A stretch of DNA of 13,764 nucleotides from a virus (Duplodnaviria > Heunggongvirae > Uroviricota > Caudoviricetes). Below, piece after piece: positions 2,824-10,079 of this stretch. A program made the position numbers and the translations under genes. The stretch lies in IMG/VR virus record IMGVR_UViG_2541047849_000006; one strand, given 5' to 3'. Under the pieces are notes generated by a model, which was not told the DNA's origin, did not search any database, and saw only the letters and a program-made list of their open reading frames with translations. Positions within the stretch are counted from its first letter, which is position 1; each line of letters starts with the position of its first letter.

Positions 2824-2979
2824 TTACTCCTCAGGTTCGTAAGCTGTGAAGACAGCGACCTCCGTCTGGCCGGTTCGGATTCGTACCTCGCAGAGGTCTT
2901 TCCTCGTTACCAGTGCCGTCACTATGACGGTTAAACAGATGACGATCAGGGCGATTAACATCGCCTTTTGCTGCTTCAT
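2824..2979 (-). CDS. hokD: Hok-family type I membrane toxin (51 aa), not in the supplied ORF track
   Basis: Manual minus-strand translation gives MKQQKAMLIALIVICLTVIVTALVTRKDLCEVRIRTGQTEVAVFTAYEPEE, a Hok/Gef-family protein (single TM helix plus the conserved LCE.R..G..EVA.F motif). SD 'aggag' upstream; lies directly after relE, as hokD (relF) does. Confidence 0.85.
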   Translation of the reverse strand: MKQQKAMLIALIVICLTVIVTALVTRKDLCEVRIRTGQTEVAVFTAYEPEE

Positions 2980-3050
2980 AGCCTGCTTCTCCTGTCAACG
3001 CAAAGCAGAAGTGTCACCTTCGGTGCGAAACAGAGATGTCATGCTTTGGT

Positions 3051-3338
3051 TCAGAGAATGCGTTTGACCGCCTCGCTATATACTTCCGAGCGTTCTCTTT
3101 TCCCAACAGAAATCACGAAAACGACAACTTTCTCGTCTATAACCTGGTATACAAGGCGATAGCCTGAAGACCGGAGCTTAATCTTGTAACAATCAGGCAT
3201 ACCACGGAGCTTGTTTGCTTCAATCCGGGGTGACTCAAGTACTTCAACCAGCTTCTTTTTCAACTGTTCACGTACCGTCGAGCCCAGCTTTCGCCATTCC
3301 TTTAGTGCCCGCTCGTCAAAATCCAGAAAATACGCCAT
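3051..3338 (-). CDS. relE: RelE mRNA-interferase toxin (95 aa)
   Basis: Protein MAYFLDFDERALKEWRKLGSTVREQLKKKLVEVLESPRIEANKLRGMPDCYKIKLRSSGYRLVYQVIDEKVVVFVISVGKRERSEVYSEAVKRIL recognised as E. coli RelE. Its start overlaps the relB stop (ATGA). Confidence 0.93.
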   Translation of the reverse strand: MAYFLDFDERALKEWRKLGSTVREQLKKKLVEVLESPRIEANKLRGMPDCYKIKLRSSGYRLVYQVIDEKVVVFVISVGKRERSEVYSEAVKRIL

Positions 3339-3577
3339 CAGAGTTCATCCAGCGTCACACGTACTGGCTTAGGATTACGAAGCCGTTCTTTCACTATCTC
3401 CACAAGTTCAGCATCTTCATCACTCAGGAGTGTCTGTTTGAACGGCAAGCGTTCATTGTCAGCGATATACTCGAGCATGAGACGAAGCGCTTCAGAAGGA
3501 GTTACACCCATTTTTTCAAGCGCGGCGTAAGAACGCGCTTTAAGTTCATCGTCAATACGCAGGTTAATGCTACCCAT
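3338..3577 (-). CDS. relB: RelB antitoxin (79 aa)
   Basis: Protein MGSINLRIDDELKARSYAALEKMGVTPSEALRLMLEYIADNERLPFKQTLLSDEDAELVEIVKERLRNPKPVRVTLDEL recognised as E. coli RelB (ribbon-helix-helix antitoxin); SD 'gaggtg' upstream. Confidence 0.93.
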   Translation of the reverse strand: MGSINLRIDDELKARSYAALEKMGVTPSEALRLMLEYIADNERLPFKQTLLSDEDAELVEIVKERLRNPKPVRVTLDEL

Positions 3578-3588
3578 GTCTTACACCT

Positions 3589-3614
3589 CTTGTAATTACA
3601 AATGTCATTACAAG
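3589..3614 (-). promoter_or_regulatory. relBE operator: two adjacent 12-bp dyad-symmetric repeats just upstream of the relB SD
   Basis: Minus-strand 'ttgtaatgacat' + 'ttgtaattacaa' (the second is a perfect palindrome), 12 nt upstream of the relB ATG. Matches the relO hexad-repeat operator as recalled. Confidence 0.6.
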
Positions 3615-3907
3615 TATCGCACTACAACATGCTTAGGGCAAGTCACGAAGGAAGTCAGAAAGTAGTCGTAAGAACGGTGATCACTGTCCGCTTTGTGCCA
3701 GGAGCAGCCATTGCTAAGTCCATCCTGTATTGTGCAGGTCAGCTCGTTTTTAAAGAGTCCGGCCATCATCTTACTGGTACAGACACCATATACTTTGTGA
3801 CGGTCAGGCTACATATGCACAACTCAACTTATTCATCTATTTTTTGCTTTAGCATGTCAGTGTTGCTTTCTCGTCGGCGGGTGAGCGGTGACCTGACCTG
3901 TCGATAA
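3602..3907 (+). CDS. ydfV: ydfV-like ORF (101 aa); coding status doubtful
   Basis: ORF of the length and position I recall for K-12 ydfV, but the start sits inside the relBE operator and the product looks low-complexity. Retained only on positional grounds. Confidence 0.25.
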   Translation: MSLQVSHYNMLRASHEGSQKVVVRTVITVRFVPGAAIAKSILYCAGQLVFKESGHHLTGTDTIYFVTVRLHMHNSTYSSIFCFSMSVLLSRRRVSGDLTCR

Positions 3908-4059
3908 AGGAACGTAACACGTTTTATGCAACACCCGCATGCGGCAGAAAATTATTGCCGAACGTTTACCCCTGTCAACAAGCTTTACTTTCTGAGGCGC
4001 GCCAGCCCGCGAGGAAAACAATCTGAACATCAAACAATTAATGACACAAGAAATACGAT

Positions 4060-4086
4060 TAAAGATTTTTTTGTGCATGCCGATAG
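4060..4086 (+). promoter_or_regulatory. Sigma-28 (FliA) class promoter of flxA
   Basis: 'taaagatt' (4060-4067), an 11-nt spacer, then 'gccgatag' (4079-4086), against the consensus TAAAGTTT-N11-GCCGATAA. It is 24 nt upstream of the flxA ATG, which has SD 'aaaggag'. Confidence 0.7.
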
Positions 4087-4109
4087 TGCTTTTTTAAAAG
4101 GAGAAATCT

Positions 4110-4442
4110 ATGTCTGTCACAATTCAGGGAAATACCTCAACCGTTATTTCAAACAACTCCGCCCCGGAAGGAACATCAGAAATAGCCAAAATCACAAGAC
4201 AAATTCAGGTGCTGACTGAAAAGCTTGGGAAAATCTCATCGGAAGAGGGGATGACGACACAGCAGAAAAAAGAAATGGCTGCATTGGTACAGAAGCAAAT
4301 TGAAAGCCTCTGGGCTCAACTGGAGCAGTTGTTAAGGCAGCAGGCAGAGAAAAAGAATGAAGACGCGACAGTTCAGCCTGATAAAAAAGAAGAGAAAAAA
4401 GACGATACAAATACCGCTGGCACCATTGATATTTACGTCTAA
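4110..4442 (+). CDS. flxA: FlxA, FliA-regulated protein (110 aa)
   Basis: Protein MSVTIQGNTSTVISNNSAPEGTSEIAKITRQIQVLTEKLGKISSEEG... recognised as FlxA; strong SD; sigma-28 promoter upstream. Confidence 0.88.
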   Translation: MSVTIQGNTSTVISNNSAPEGTSEIAKITRQIQVLTEKLGKISSEEGMTTQQKKEMAALVQKQIESLWAQLEQLLRQQAEKKNEDATVQPDKKEEKKDDTNTAGTIDIYV

Positions 4443-4456
4443 GTGACAGCCGTATT

Positions 4457-4480
4457 GTGGCCCTCATCGGGCCACTTTTC
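4457..4480 (+). terminator. Rho-independent terminator downstream of flxA
   Basis: Stem 'gtggccc' (4457-4463), loop 'tcatc', 'gggccac' (4469-4475), then 'ttttc'. Confidence 0.65.
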
Positions 4481-4799
4481 GCCATCAGCCTTTTCTTTAA
4501 AGACATATTATCTTTGTATCATTTCTGATAGTTAACATTACAAGATATAAGTAATGGACGCACTCCCAATTAGTCTATTTAAATCGCCACGAGTTTAACT
4601 GACAACCCATGATCAATTATGAATTGCAACTATTTCTGTAGTCACTTTTGTGGGGACAGTCCACAAAACTGCCAACTTCCGCTTCTTGCTCTTAGCGGAC
4701 ATTAGCATAGGCTATTTACCATAACGCCTCATTACGCGCACCGCCCAGACTGACTCAGCGCGTTTCTGGCATATCCCCGGTAAAACAAGTAACAAACCA

Positions 4800-6260
4800 C
4801 CCGAAAATGAACACCAGAAACGCGACTTAAGAATCTACCCTATGAATGGATATGCACTCAACCGAATCGATCTTGGTTTCAATCTTTTTTATCGGGATCA
4901 GGCTTCTTTTTAGGTAACTTCGGGGGCTTAACTTGCTGATGACTTTGCGTTCGGCGCGTAAGCCAGGGATGGTCAGCTTTAGGTTTAACATAGTATTTTG
5001 AGCGTAAATCAATACGGGCATTATCCACTCGTTCATGGACACTCTTTTCATCATCCAGTGGTATAGGCTCCGGGCCATCAACATACTTTTCCCAGCCCAG
5101 CGCTTTCCCGTCATACAGAACGTTAATTTCACCGTCAAAGTTCTCGCATACAGTAACAACCGAATGCCTAAGTCGATATCCCCGGCCCTCACTGCGTACC
5201 TGAAACGCACTGCTTTTGTACTGGAAAGTGAGATTTTTAGACAGAACGCGCTTCGCCTGTAGGCTGAAGATATAACCCAGTTCCTCTTCAGAATGGTGCA
5301 CATCAAGATGAGCATTATCAGTAGTACGAGGCGACGTAGCGAACCGGTTGTTATAGGCTTCAATAAAGGTCGGCAACCATGCATTTGCTGTTTCAATATC
5401 ACTGATATTCTGAAGCCGCATTTCTTTGACCAGCCTGTCCTGTAGTGTCTGATTGGCGCGCTCTACCCGCCCTTTTGCCTGCGGGCTGTTGGCATGGATT
5501 GGCTCGATGCCCAGTGTCTTTATCGCACGAGTGAACTGGGTCAGCTCACCTTCCCGCTCTGGGTTATTTACCCTGAATATACTGTGTCTATCAGAGTAGA
5601 GAGCGAGCGGTACGCCATGATCATTAAGGTAACCCCGGAGGGTTTCCATGTAAGCCCGGGTTGTTTCAGCAGGCACAAAACGCAACGCCATCAACGCACT
5701 GGTGGCATCATCAATGAAAACGATCAGTGTACATCTGGGGCCTCGATTTTCAAACCAGTCATGAGGTGAGCCATCAATCTGGATCAGTTCACCGTAAGAT
5801 GGTCGTCGCATGCGGCGTTGATATATACGGGCAATTTTACGACGGCGTTCACGCCATAACCCCTCTTCTATCATCCACTTTCTGAGAGTTTCAACGGATA
5901 AAGATAAACCGTGTATCTCGCGCAATTTTTCGCACGCAAACGTAGGTCCAAAATCAGCGTAACGGCCTTTGAGGAGTGAAATTACTGTTGCTCTGAATTC
6001 AGTAGAAAAGGAATTATTAGGACGCTTTCCACGTCGGTGGGAAACCAGACCAGAAGGCCCTTCATTTCTATACCGTTGCACCAGACGTTTAACCTGCCGA
6101 ATAGAAATGCCAATGCGTGCCGCAGCTTGTTCCTGAATAATCTGAAGTCGGTGGAGTTCCTTATGACTCATCGTAACAGTCTCTTTGATCATGAAAAATC
6201 CCCCAGAGAATTGTCTGGGGACATTTTAGAATGGTTCAAAGGGGACATTACAGCTTGGTG
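4800..6260 (-). mobile_element. Insertion sequence carrying a single DDE/rve transposase gene; ends are approximate and terminal inverted repeats were not resolved
   Basis: A 437-aa transposase ORF with short flanks, sitting where K-12 Qin (as recalled) has no such gene. The boundaries are a guess from the ORF limits; I could not identify the IRs or a target-site duplication by eye. Confidence 0.35.
4879..6192 (-). CDS. DDE-type transposase with an N-terminal HTH and an rve (integrase-core) catalytic domain, IS481/ISNCY-like (437 aa)
   Basis: N-terminal HTH-like segment (..IGISIRQVKRLVQRY..); candidate catalytic residues in 'IQIDGSPHDWFE', 'LALYSDRHSIF' and 'ANSPQAKGRVERANQTLQDRL' (D, D, E with a downstream basic residue); basic C-terminal tail. 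SD 'ggggga' 8 nt upstream of the ATG at 6192. Confidence 0.85.
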   Translation of the reverse strand: MIKETVTMSHKELHRLQIIQEQAAARIGISIRQVKRLVQRYRNEGPSGLVSHRRGKRPNNSFSTEFRATVISLLKGRYADFGPTFACEKLREIHGLSLSVETLRKWMIEEGLWRERRRKIARIYQRRMRRPSYGELIQIDGSPHDWFENRGPRCTLIVFIDDATSALMALRFVPAETTRAYMETLRGYLNDHGVPLALYSDRHSIFRVNNPEREGELTQFTRAIKTLGIEPIHANSPQAKGRVERANQTLQDRLVKEMRLQNISDIETANAWLPTFIEAYNNRFATSPRTTDNAHLDVHHSEEELGYIFSLQAKRVLSKNLTFQYKSSAFQVRSEGRGYRLRHSVVTVCENFDGEINVLYDGKALGWEKYVDGPEPIPLDDEKSVHERVDNARIDLRSKYYVKPKADHPWLTRRTQSHQQVKPPKLPKKKPDPDKKD

Positions 6261-6526
6261 TTAACAATAGCCTGCTTCTCCGTGCCTTTCGGCACGTAAG
6301 AGGCTAACCTACATGTGTCTAGCATGAAATTGGCCTCAGATTAATGTTAAGCGTCTTGCAGGACGCGTAATGTTAACTGGGGCTTTTCTCTATCTGCCGT
6401 TGGTGTCCATGCCCGAGGCAGATAGCCTCAAGCACCCGCAGTCATTCTACTTAACTAAGATTTCCCCGCAAACCGTTTTTGTCCAGCACAGTAAATATCC
6501 AACTAAACCAATGGAGTTCGCTGTAT

Positions 6527-6706
6527 TTACCGCCAGTATTCAATGCACATGACCGCCATGAACACCCCTAAAAAAAGGGCATTTATATATCCAAATATTA
6601 ATATCAAAACATCAACTTTTTCCATATACCTTGCTGTGAAGATGATGGGCATACATGATGCGAACAACCAGAACGCAACAAACAAAAACTGCAATGCGTT
6701 TTTCAT
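6527..6706 (-). CDS. Small hydrophobic protein (59 aa, two predicted TM helices) with a consensus RBS; candidate moron or membrane toxin
   Basis: Minus strand 'tgtAGGAGGaataATG': an AGGAGG SD 5 nt upstream of the ATG at 6706. Product MKNALQFLFVAFWLFASCMPIIFTARYMEKVDVLILIFGYINALFLGVFMAVMCIEYWR. The track's longer 72-aa ORF uses an upstream GTG. Confidence 0.5.
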   Translation of the reverse strand: MKNALQFLFVAFWLFASCMPIIFTARYMEKVDVLILIFGYINALFLGVFMAVMCIEYWR

Positions 6707-6960
6707 TATTCCTCCTACAATCAATGTGCAATTACATTTAAACACACCTCAATTTGGCCGGACATATAAATATCTAAACCAGAAAAAATCACTTACATAG
6801 CGTTACAAACTCTTTAGTCTAAAGGTTCATCGTAAAACATTCCCCATACTTATCAGTCCGTTCCGCGCCAGGTAGCTCATTGCCTTATCTGGCAACCTGT
6901 AATCAGGTTTCCGCTTTTTCAGTTGGCTGGTCGTTTAACCGACATAGTTAATCCATTAAT

Positions 6961-7436
6961 CTAGTTGCCGGATGTTGGTGGATTTTCGCGTTTTAGTTGT
7001 TCATAAAAGTGCACAGCTTTAACCAGTTCTTCTGATGTAACTGGGACTGGTGAGGCAGTGAATAAGGCCTGAATTTGATAGTTCGGCCTGTCGTTACAAT
7101 CCTCTTTTTTCGGTACATATTTCCAGTCACCAGACCACTACTTCCCCTGAAAGTCCGTAACGCCTTTTTTCACGTAGCGATATCGCCATGCCACTGGTTT
7201 TGCTTGCCCCGCCGTTTCATGCCCTTCCTGATAATTAATCTCGCTCATTCATCGCCCCACTCATCACAATATGCTTCGACCGGAGTTTTTCCCGCTTCAT
7301 AGTCATCACGCTAGGATTCGACATCAGCAGCACTTCCACCGCGTAACTCACCATAGTCCATTAATAGTTCATCCCGCTCTTCAAAACTGATGTTATATTT
7401 AGCTGAACAAAAATCAGCCACTTTGTTCTTCCTCAT
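6961..7436 (-). pseudogene. Run of short collinear minus-strand ORFs interrupted by in-frame amber codons; probable decayed early gene(s)
   Basis: ORF A (ATG 7436) reads MRKNKVADFCSAKYNISFEERDELLMDYGELRGGSAADVES-TAG(7313..7311)-RDDYEAGKTPVEAYCDEWGDE-TGA. ORF B (ATG 7248, overlapping that TGA as ATGA) reads MSEINYQEGHETAGQAKPVAWRYRYVKKGVTDFQGK-TAG(7140..7138)-WSGDWKYVPKKEDCNDRPNYQIQALFTASPVPVTSEELVKAVHFYEQLKRENPPTSGN-TAG. Confidence 0.35.
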
Positions 7437-7858
7437 CGTCTTTTATTTCGTGGTATGAGTAATTGCAGTAGTTAAAGAAAATTTCTTATGCTCCGTCATG
7501 AATTTCCTCAGGTGTTGCGTCATCGTCCACTTCGAATACATCCTCAAAATCTCCACCAGCTATTCCCGTTTCAATAATAATTTTGAACTTTCGCATTTCA
7601 CTACCGCCCTTTCGGGCGGCCTCCTGATGTTCTGAGGGTGCAGAAATCCATCCGGTTAAGGATTAAATTTTATTTACAGAACTGAATTTAATTATTCAGA
7701 TATACGTATCTGTAGCCTTACGAATCTACTCACTGGATGCCTCTTTCATAAAAATAATCCAGTGGGTTTTATCGTTTTTTCCCTGTTCGTTGACAGATAA
7801 CAGGTTTTCTGTCTGTCAGTGCCAGAATCTGGCTTACCGGTATTTGCGTTTCATTCCA

Positions 7859-8674: not shown

Positions 8675-9202
8675 TTATCCTCTGAAACCAGGCGGAATTT
8701 CTGTATCCGGTTCAGAAATATGATTAACACAACGCTGTACAGGTGAACGTCCCAGGCGGATGACCAGTTCGTCCCATTTTTCGCGGAGCTTTGACGGGCT
8801 CATGATGTTTTTTACCCAGAATGGATCTCGCTGAACCCGACCAAACATTTCGCAAATTTGTCTGTGGCTTCTGCCATCCAGCATCCGCATTGTGCGCACG
8901 TCATTGGCCCAGGCAGTCCAGTTAGCCTCCATAATTGCAGGCACTAGCGCCGTGAACTTTTCACGCTTATCCCTGGTGTCGATAGCCTTCCAGCGTTCAA
9001 ATATCTTCACTCGATTAACGCCAAGCGCTCGCTGATCAATCGCGCCACCTTCATATGTGACACGCTGAACATCGATGTTCGGGCGCTCTTTCAAAGCCCA
9101 GAATGCTTCAGTGATTAATATCGTCGCCTGCTCCTGTGTCATTCCTGGTCGACATATCCAGGCATCCAGAGCCTCACGAGCCTGTTCAGGAGTGATTTTC
9201 AT
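8675..9202 (-). CDS. Hypothetical prophage early protein (175 aa), first gene downstream of dicC
   Basis: ATG start at 9202, overlapping the dicC 3' end by 17 nt. Product MKITPEQAREALDAWICRPGMTQEQATILITEAFWALKERPNIDV... not recognised. It occupies the position of the first post-Cro gene in lambdoid early-right operons. Confidence 0.6.
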   Translation of the reverse strand: MKITPEQAREALDAWICRPGMTQEQATILITEAFWALKERPNIDVQRVTYEGGAIDQRALGVNRVKIFERWKAIDTRDKREKFTALVPAIMEANWTAWANDVRTMRMLDGRSHRQICEMFGRVQRDPFWVKNIMSPSKLREKWDELVIRLGRSPVQRCVNHISEPDTEIPPGFRG

Positions 9203-9996: not shown

Positions 9997-10079
9997 TGTT
10001 TGCATCAACACACCGCACGGTGTTCTCAGCAAACAGTTCCGCTATGGTTATTAGCGCACAGGAATTGTTGCAGGAAGAC

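Follow-up and report, generated by a model that had tools for sequence, protein, structure and literature searches.

A two-group family of small, predicted membrane-hairpin proteins encoded upstream of hok/sok in lambdoid prophages of Escherichia coli and Shigella

Introduction

The closest described counterparts of the small prophage protein considered here are spread over several functional classes. The pinholin S21-68 of phage 21, a class II holin, carries a GxxxSxxxG zipper in its second transmembrane (TM) helix, and Imm of phage T4, a small membrane protein expressed early, prevents DNA injection. In Qin, dicB and ydfD are genes of the early-left operon, with demonstrated targets, and DicB blocks the phage entry that depends on ManYZ. 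Toxin–antitoxin systems supply further points of comparison, among them the Hok/Gef type I toxins, the type V toxin GhoT, and relBE, the classic type II pair. hokD (relF) of K-12, which stands behind relBE, is not known to have sok or mok.

The DNA analysed here (the window) is a stretch of 13,764 nucleotides from a Caudoviricetes record, IMGVR_UViG_2541047849_000006, in which a preliminary description, made from the sequence alone, had singled out an AT-rich, moron-like gene for a 59-aa membrane protein. This reading frame, named ORF59, was followed through protein databases, complete genomes and structure prediction. On balance it is likely that ORF59 is a genuine gene whose product forms an inner-membrane hairpin, that it belongs to a two-group family carried upstream of hok/sok by lambdoid prophages of E. 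coli and Shigella, and that it would be expressed as a delayed-early gene and act within the membrane.

Genomic context of ORF59

With 99.95% identity, the window matches the Qin-type lambdoid prophage found in E. coli ATCC 8739 and in many other strains. Its early-right operon runs on the minus strand through dicC, a ydaT-family gene, an O-like gene, DUF977, a methyltransferase, two pseudogenes and ORF59, and continues with a hok/sok leader, a transposase, flxA, ydfV, relBE, hokD, rem, ydfU and the Q antiterminator. ORF59 had been placed between an insertion sequence and decayed early ORFs, and this is indeed its setting, with the transposase (4879-6192; element end at 6266) on one side and the two pseudogenes on the other:

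6527-6706, minus strand: ORF59, coding sequence including the stop, for a protein of 59 aa that is predicted to lie in the inner membrane as two helices; it represents group 1 of the family
6827-7248, minus strand: pseudogenised nin-region ORF, the upstream neighbour of ORF59, annotated by PGAP as 'frameshifted; internal stop' in the 99.95%-identical locus L001, with six stops in its translation
7414-7596, minus strand: pseudogene of the early-right operon

The preliminary description did not recognise ORF59 as any gene of the K-12 Qin prophage, and the frame is in fact absent there, MG1655 having a deletion that runs from inside the transposase gene to ydfX. As K-12 is without group 1, and no group 2 match was seen in it, it is probably a null background for tests.

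Compared with L001, the window lacks two segments, at 8929/8930 and at 10044 (L001 9630-10558 and 11685-13674). The shorter, of ~0.9 kb, holds part of the O-like gene and the ydaT-family gene, and the longer, of ~2 kb, holds ydfA, ydfB, ydfC, dicF, dicB and ydfD, so that the window copy is without the DicB/DicF division-inhibition cassette. L001 itself (NZ_CP026085.1; 4.83 Mb) is labelled 'DH5alpha' and contains a complete ATCC 8739-type Qin region, including ORF59. Since true K-12 derivatives do not have this type of Qin region, the label is doubtful.

Reading frame and ribosome-binding site

ORF59 runs from an ATG at 6706 to a TAA at 6529-6527, and its earlier translation was reproduced exactly, the product being MKNALQFLFVAFWLFASCMPIIFTARYMEKVDVLILIFGYINALFLGVFMAVMCIEYWR. 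A perfect AGGAGG had been reported 5 nt upstream of the start; the motif is present, but the spacer is 4 nt, the last G standing at -5. In 17 of 86 related loci the motif reads AGGGGG, and RNA folding over the ribosome-binding region is the same as in shuffled sequences (z = 0.52). Two short features of the frame are as follows:

6711-6716, minus strand: Shine-Dalgarno (SD) sequence AGGAGG, followed by the spacer AATA (4 nt) and the ORF59 ATG, read directly from the sequence
6571-6577, minus strand: T7 run (A7 on the plus strand) inside ORF59 codons 44-46, a slippage site that leads to 55-aa frameshift variants

The frameshift variants arising at the T7 run (P0022, P0024 and P0025) end in ...NALFFRGVHGGHVH. 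A T8 version of the frameshift haplotype finds an exact match in only one complete genome, and draft assemblies contain many truncated or chimeric forms of ORF59, along with T7-run frameshifts.

The strong hydrophobicity claimed for the product is borne out by a GRAVY value of 1.27; when the same bases are shuffled and kept free of stops, the value is 0.55 ± 0.32, and 39 of 3000 shuffles reach 1.27. The share of T is 53% at codon position 2 and only 24% at position 3, a skew from which it follows that the hydrophobicity is not a mere consequence of T-richness. The region 6540-6800 is as AT-rich as had been noted, with 34.9% GC compared with 46.8% over the whole window, which places it in the lowest 0.4% of 261-nt windows.

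Evidence for a protein-coding gene family

An exhaustive phmmer search over 1.84 billion representative proteins uncovered a second group of homologues (P0037/P0042), also of 59 aa, which align with ORF59 without gaps at 41% identity and end at the same stop. Between the two groups the coding sequences are 59% identical in nucleotides (58, 72 and 48% at the three codon positions), with a pS of 0.72 that exceeds the pN of 0.34. The sense frame is the only one open in both groups, every other frame having stops in one or both. As a control, the alignment columns were permuted 5000 times, a procedure that keeps composition and identity and destroys codons. The observed BLOSUM62 sum of 148 compares with 39.7 ± 18.9 in the shuffles, none of which reaches 148 (z ~5.7), and only 4 of the 5000 leave both sequences free of stops. 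Group 2 has an in-frame stop five codons ahead of the ATG, which settles the length of the gene model at 59 aa. The existence of a 41%-identical paralogue in which frame and codon structure are preserved, and which passes the shuffle test, thus marks a real gene family, and comparison of the two groups argues that ORF59 is a genuine protein-coding gene and not a chance ORF.

Two other gene models were rejected. An 85-aa ORF on the opposite strand (6543-6800, plus), which phage records label 'hornerin' or hypothetical, is interrupted by two stops in the paralogue, and its BLOSUM62 sum is only 62, the sense frame scoring 154. A 72-aa version starting at GTG 6745, as found in nr, has an extension that covers the SD and is not conserved, and the upstream in-frame stop of group 2 speaks against it as well.

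Polymorphism within group 1, in a small sample, amounts to six nonsynonymous sites and no synonymous ones. The changes are all conservative (A16V, V31I, I37M, Y40H, L44I and M53T), and two of them, I37M and Y40H, yield the residue of group 2. A ratio of 6:0, the numbers being small, is not what strong current purifying selection would be predicted to leave. ORF59 has 5 variable sites in its 180 nt, compared with ~9 in the 100 nt upstream and 6 in the 85 nt downstream. One decayed copy (L088) has lost the SD and acquired frameshifts while its hok is intact, and no match to this type of allele was found in viral contigs.

Distribution and annotation

Close homologues of ORF59, with at least 93% protein identity, occur in E. 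coli and Shigella only, and the family is restricted to lambdoid prophages and prophage remnants of these hosts. Group 1 is present in 1568 of 5426 complete E. coli genomes, ST131 among them, always with at least 95% nucleotide identity, and group 2 in 1045 of the 5426, with at least 99% identity, the two counts being separate and possibly overlapping. The preliminary description had let its proposal stand or fall with conservation in related prophages; besides this wide occurrence of group 1, ORF59 is intact in 86 of 87 related loci, also in the most divergent copies from complete genomes. It stands at the same nin-region position in sequenced, active lambdoid phages and in an ST131 prophage, and was found at only two plasmid places. 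Profile searching returned no third group.

Annotation has passed the family by. It is uncalled in the ~150 RefSeq records sampled over both groups (60 of them for group 1), and in the three phage records that carry group 1 the antisense ORF was called instead. Neither Pfam, PHROGs, PADLOC nor NCBIfam has a family that reaches threshold with ORF59, and the Pfam search stays empty even at E <= 10; the group 2 paralogue gives a sub-threshold match to NCBIfam TIGR03647 (14.5 bits against a cut-off of 26). Foldseek against viral structures gave no match better than E = 0.9, as expected of a bare hairpin, and peptide strings of the family had no match among 8 million full-text papers. The family is therefore a clear case of a small membrane protein missed by standard annotation and absent from protein-family libraries.

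The group 2 member P0042 lies in a prophage remnant of ~1.5 kb at the ttcA site, the Rac attachment site, in strains without Rac. It has an integrase fragment on one side and, on the other, sit-operon (ABC-3) gene fragments, uspF and ompN. The locus (L090-L097, about 4984-7170) also includes ~700 nt of very AT-rich, ORF-free DNA, and the paralogue is the sole intact ORF remaining in the remnant. Two haplotypes of the locus differ by ~1.6% over 1.9 kb, with zero differences in the 300-nt island that holds the ORF.

Association with hok/sok

A hok/sok locus, a neighbour that the preliminary description did not notice, lies immediately downstream of ORF59 in both groups. In ST131 and other prophages the order is ORF59, hok leader and an intact hokD coding sequence, and in group 2 a 3' fragment of hok, recognised by eye, comes directly after the ORF, Rfam detecting nothing in that locus. 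The window itself retains both halves of the hok locus, at a distance from each other, the leader beginning 90 nt past the ORF59 stop and being cut off from the hok coding sequence:

6267-6437, minus strand: hok/sok leader (mok/sok region), matched by Rfam sok RF01794 at 6266-6437 (104 bits, E = 3e-23)
2824-2979, minus strand: coding sequence of hokD (relF), now displaced; it is the 3' half of a hok locus that once stood behind ORF59, and is 97.7% identical to the hokD region of L098

Over the whole window Rfam returned only sok, which is downstream of ORF59 and does not overlap the ORF. As hok stands downstream of both of the 41%-identical groups, the linkage predates the split between them. 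Old as it is, the link is not an obligatory one. Of the 4313 genomes matched by the hok-leader portion of the query, only 1551 have the stretch including ORF59 covered; plasmid hok loci are without ORF59; and ORF59 is intact where hok has been deleted, as in group 2, or displaced by a transposon, as in the window. The available part of a 2026 preprint surveying Hok mentions no small ORF upstream.

The orphaned leader (6267-6440, minus) matches the full Rfam sok model at 104 bits. By eye, a -10-like hexamer, TAGAAT, can be seen a few bases upstream of GGGTGCTTGAGGC, which resembles the 5' end of hok mRNA. Sok RNA and the mok start may still be expressed from this leader, with the hok coding sequence 3.3 kb off behind relBE.

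A transposon at hok start codons

The DNA that separates the hok leader from hokD in the window is a transposon, defined relative to the uninterrupted leader-hokD arrangement of ST131 (seen in L098):

2993-6266, no strand assigned: 3,274-bp transposon carrying relE, relB, ydfV and flxA together with a transposase (4879-6192) of the IS1202-like ISEsa1 family; its insertion parts the hok leader from the start codon of hokD

Both flanks bear the 15-bp sequence ATAGCCTGCTTCTCC as a perfect direct repeat (2978-2992 and 6267-6281). The transposase is a continuous ORF of 437 aa (4879-6192, minus), for which the PGAP name is IS1202-like ISEsa1 family. The element recurs, at 99.5% identity and with ends that are identical, on an Enterobacter IncF plasmid and a Salmonella IncI plasmid (L100 1219-4519; L101 1206-4506), where it is bordered by different 15-bp duplications, ATGGCCTTCTTCTCC and ATCATAGCCCCTCCA, each covering the SD together with the ATG of a distinct hok-family gene. 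The element thus measures 3.27-3.30 kb, has imperfect inverted repeats at its ends and is bordered by target duplications of 15 bp, and three independent insertions are known (Qin hokD, Enterobacter IncF hok and Salmonella IncI hok/pnd). All lie between a hok leader and a hok start codon, and in each the duplicated stretch takes in the SD and the beginning of the ATG.

Identical ends at three sites with different 15-bp duplications indicate an active, target-specific transposon with relBE as cargo, and its insertion at the hok start explains the 'relBEF' order of K-12, in which hokD (relF) follows relBE. A published table gives ISEsa1 a length of 1,609 bp and no detectable duplication (PMC10132070); measured against that source, with which alone it was compared, the longer unit with a 15-bp duplication appears to be undescribed. 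This transposon and its cargo may interest specialists more than ORF59 itself.

Annotation of the transposase varies. The 49-aa 'protein YdfW' of K-12 corresponds to the C-terminal end of the window transposase (4879-6192). In the 99.95%-identical copy of L001, PGAP calls an incomplete ISNCY transposase and a separate ydfW, and in some genomes a version that exceeds it by ~27 bp is annotated as an intact transposase of the ISEsa1 family.

Expression signals

The DNA upstream of ORF59 forms a unit with it:

6707-6913, minus strand: non-coding leader of ~207 nt, which travels with ORF59 as one mosaic module and has no recognisable promoter

The homology that most other prophages share with the window sets in at 6913 (reference position 188), no matter which gene comes before. 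Because this boundary, ~207 nt upstream of the ATG, is the same irrespective of the preceding gene, the mobile module consists of the leader, ORF59 and hok/sok. A consensus scan of 6100-7300 on both strands gave zero sigma-70-like promoters (shuffles give 2.4), a relaxed scan for -10 and -35 elements gave nothing convincing for group 1, and no terminator was found between the ORF59 stop and the hok leader. In group 2, a perfect extended -10, TGATATAAT, lies 80 nt ahead of the start codon. The other haplotype carries a mutation of its first T, and in about half of haplotypes the element is mutated; not being conserved between haplotypes, it was rejected as a promoter.

The designation 'moron-like' is therefore not supported. 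Deviant base composition is the one point that fits; an own promoter and terminator were not found, the gene is co-oriented with the early-right operon, and active lambdoid phages share its nin position. Location on the same strand as that operon, together with the lack of an own promoter, makes expression from the delayed-early transcript likely. ORF59 is thus most likely expressed from this transcript upon derepression of the prophage, judging from the arrangement of the locus, and would not be an autonomous moron active in the lysogen.

An antisense RNA opposite ORF59, the other regulatory element that had been envisaged, is not indicated by the searches: the scan of 6100-7300 detected nothing promoter-like on the opposite strand, and no Rfam family lies over ORF59. 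A terminator-like hairpin, AACCTGTAATCAGGTT, with a T-rich tail does occur at 6894-6919 on the plus strand, antisense to ORF59 and within the conserved leader. This site (6894-6909, plus) does not exceed what chance would give in the region, and a promoter that could feed it was not found.

Predicted structure and conserved residues

AlphaFold2 models ORF59 as two helices, spanning residues 2-26 and 28-58 (mean pLDDT 74), and the protein has two hydrophobic maxima, so the prediction agrees with the two-helix membrane protein first proposed. The topology would be N-in/C-in with an 8-residue periplasmic loop, as inferred from the positive-inside rule, K2 (R2K3 in group 2) lying at the N-terminus and the loop being neutral or acidic.

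Seventeen positions are invariant between the groups (M1, L5, L8, W13, S17, C18, P20, I22, T24, L36, G39, N42, A43, L44, E56, W58 and R59), and G47, V48 and F49 are nearly so. The conserved residues cluster on one face of each helix, formed in TM1 by W13, S17, C18, P20 and T24, and in TM2 by G39, N42, A43 and G47. The TM2 face, G39xxN42A43xxxG47, resembles a glycine zipper (GxxxAxxxG) with a putatively buried Asn, a pattern typical of tight helix packing.

Possible functions

ORF59 would be transcribed with the delayed-early message after prophage derepression, translated from its strong SD, and act inside the membrane by helix-helix packing through the conserved faces of TM1 and TM2. The preliminary description had suggested a toxin, a superinfection-exclusion factor or a lysis modulator; these labels are unsupported, and searches matched ORF59 to no known toxin, holin, Sie or defence family. 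The reading preferred here, tentatively, is that the protein self-associates into a small oligomer that would perturb or gate the inner membrane, in the manner of a viroporin or pinholin. A reading in which it binds a partner is nearly as likely. Should ORF59 depolarise the membrane or block a host transporter, it would join the few small proteins of cryptic prophages that alter host physiology or phage sensitivity.

As a partner-binding inhibitor, the hairpin would dock on and block a host inner-membrane protein, for example ManYZ or PtsG as used by incoming phage DNA, and the resulting superinfection exclusion would shield the induced or lysogenic cell. This possibility, also a tentative one, gains from the nature of the protein, which is prophage-borne, small, predicted to be fully membrane-embedded and endowed with conserved polar residues inside its helices. 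It gains too from the persistence of intact ORF59 in cryptic prophages whose neighbouring genes have decayed, and from the precedents of DicB and T4 Imm. Protection of a lysogen, however, requires expression under repression, and group 1 has no promoter of its own; nor did PADLOC, Pfam or PHROGs assign ORF59 to any Sie or defence family.

That ORF59 has no current function, being either a once-coding frame subject to drift in cryptic prophages or an accidental ORF of an AT-rich spacer, is unlikely. The 6:0 ratio in group 1, the decayed and frameshifted copies and the silence of PGAP all point that way, but the comparison between groups excludes a chance ORF, and intact copies occur in sequenced phage genomes. 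The ORF is moreover less polymorphic than its flanks, and in group 2 the 300-nt island around it has no differences where the flanks differ by 1.6%.

A partnership with the adjacent hok/sok, in which ORF59 would be a membrane modulator of Hok, an immunity factor or the second effector of one module, is distinctly improbable. It draws on a linkage older than the split between the groups, with hok/sok after ORF59 in group 1 and a hok 3' remnant in group 2. Yet each partner occurs alone, the hok leader in far more genomes than cover ORF59 and on plasmids without it, while ORF59 is intact where hok has been deleted or displaced and, conversely, L088 keeps hok intact beside a decayed ORF59; hok is besides already under the control of its own Sok and mok. 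A more far-reaching version, to which we give very little credence, holds that ORF59 and hok are one ancestral two-effector membrane module of lambdoid nin regions, the hairpin either modulating the insertion or pore of Hok or being an independently triggered effector for phage-phage competition or abortive infection. If true, this would mean that a protein component of hok loci had been overlooked in 40 years of plasmid hok/sok work.

The type I-like membrane toxin under antisense-RNA control at which the preliminary description hinted is very unlikely, for although ORF59 is small, very hydrophobic, prophage-borne, equipped with a strong SD and located beside a real type I system, it has 59 aa and two helices where the Hok, Ldr, Ibs and TisB peptides have a single helix, the opposite strand offers no promoter-like site in 6100-7300 and no Rfam overlap, the sole terminator-like site (plus strand, 6894-6909) is at chance level, and no Pfam toxin matches.

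Comparison with known systems

Class II holins and pinholins offer one comparison. S21-68 of phage 21 is a small phage protein with two TM helices, an N-in/C-in topology and a small-residue zipper in TM2, features also predicted for ORF59. In contrast to pinholins, ORF59 is outside the lysis cassette, Qin having its essQ-ydfR-rrrQ elsewhere, and it stands between the replication and nin genes and hok, upstream of Q, rather than beside an endolysin as holins do. It also has neither a dual-start motif nor a charged C-terminal tail (only EYWR), its TM1 is strongly hydrophobic and not SAR-like, and searches of Pfam and PHROGs matched it to no holin family.

With the Hok/Gef type I toxins, small hydrophobic peptides of prophages and plasmids, ORF59 shares size and character as well as adjacency in both groups. 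It is unrelated to them in sequence, however, has two helices instead of one, and is without a mok-type leader ORF, a Sok-like antisense RNA or fold-back mRNA elements over the ORF.

DicB (62 aa) and YdfD (63 aa) come from the same type of prophage, are of similar size, are silent under repressor and are kept in cryptic prophages. ORF59 differs from both in its early-right nin-region position, its predicted membrane-integral nature, its unrelated sequence and its absence from K-12. T4 Imm and other small membrane proteins of superinfection exclusion are, like ORF59, small, and are early-expressed and membrane-embedded, as is predicted for ORF59, but have no sequence or profile match to it. GhoT, of 57 aa and with two predicted TM helices, is close in size and form, whereas ORF59 has no Pfam match, no ghoS-like neighbour and a different genomic context. 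Set beside these systems, ORF59 is an unannotated addition to the broad class of small prophage membrane proteins.
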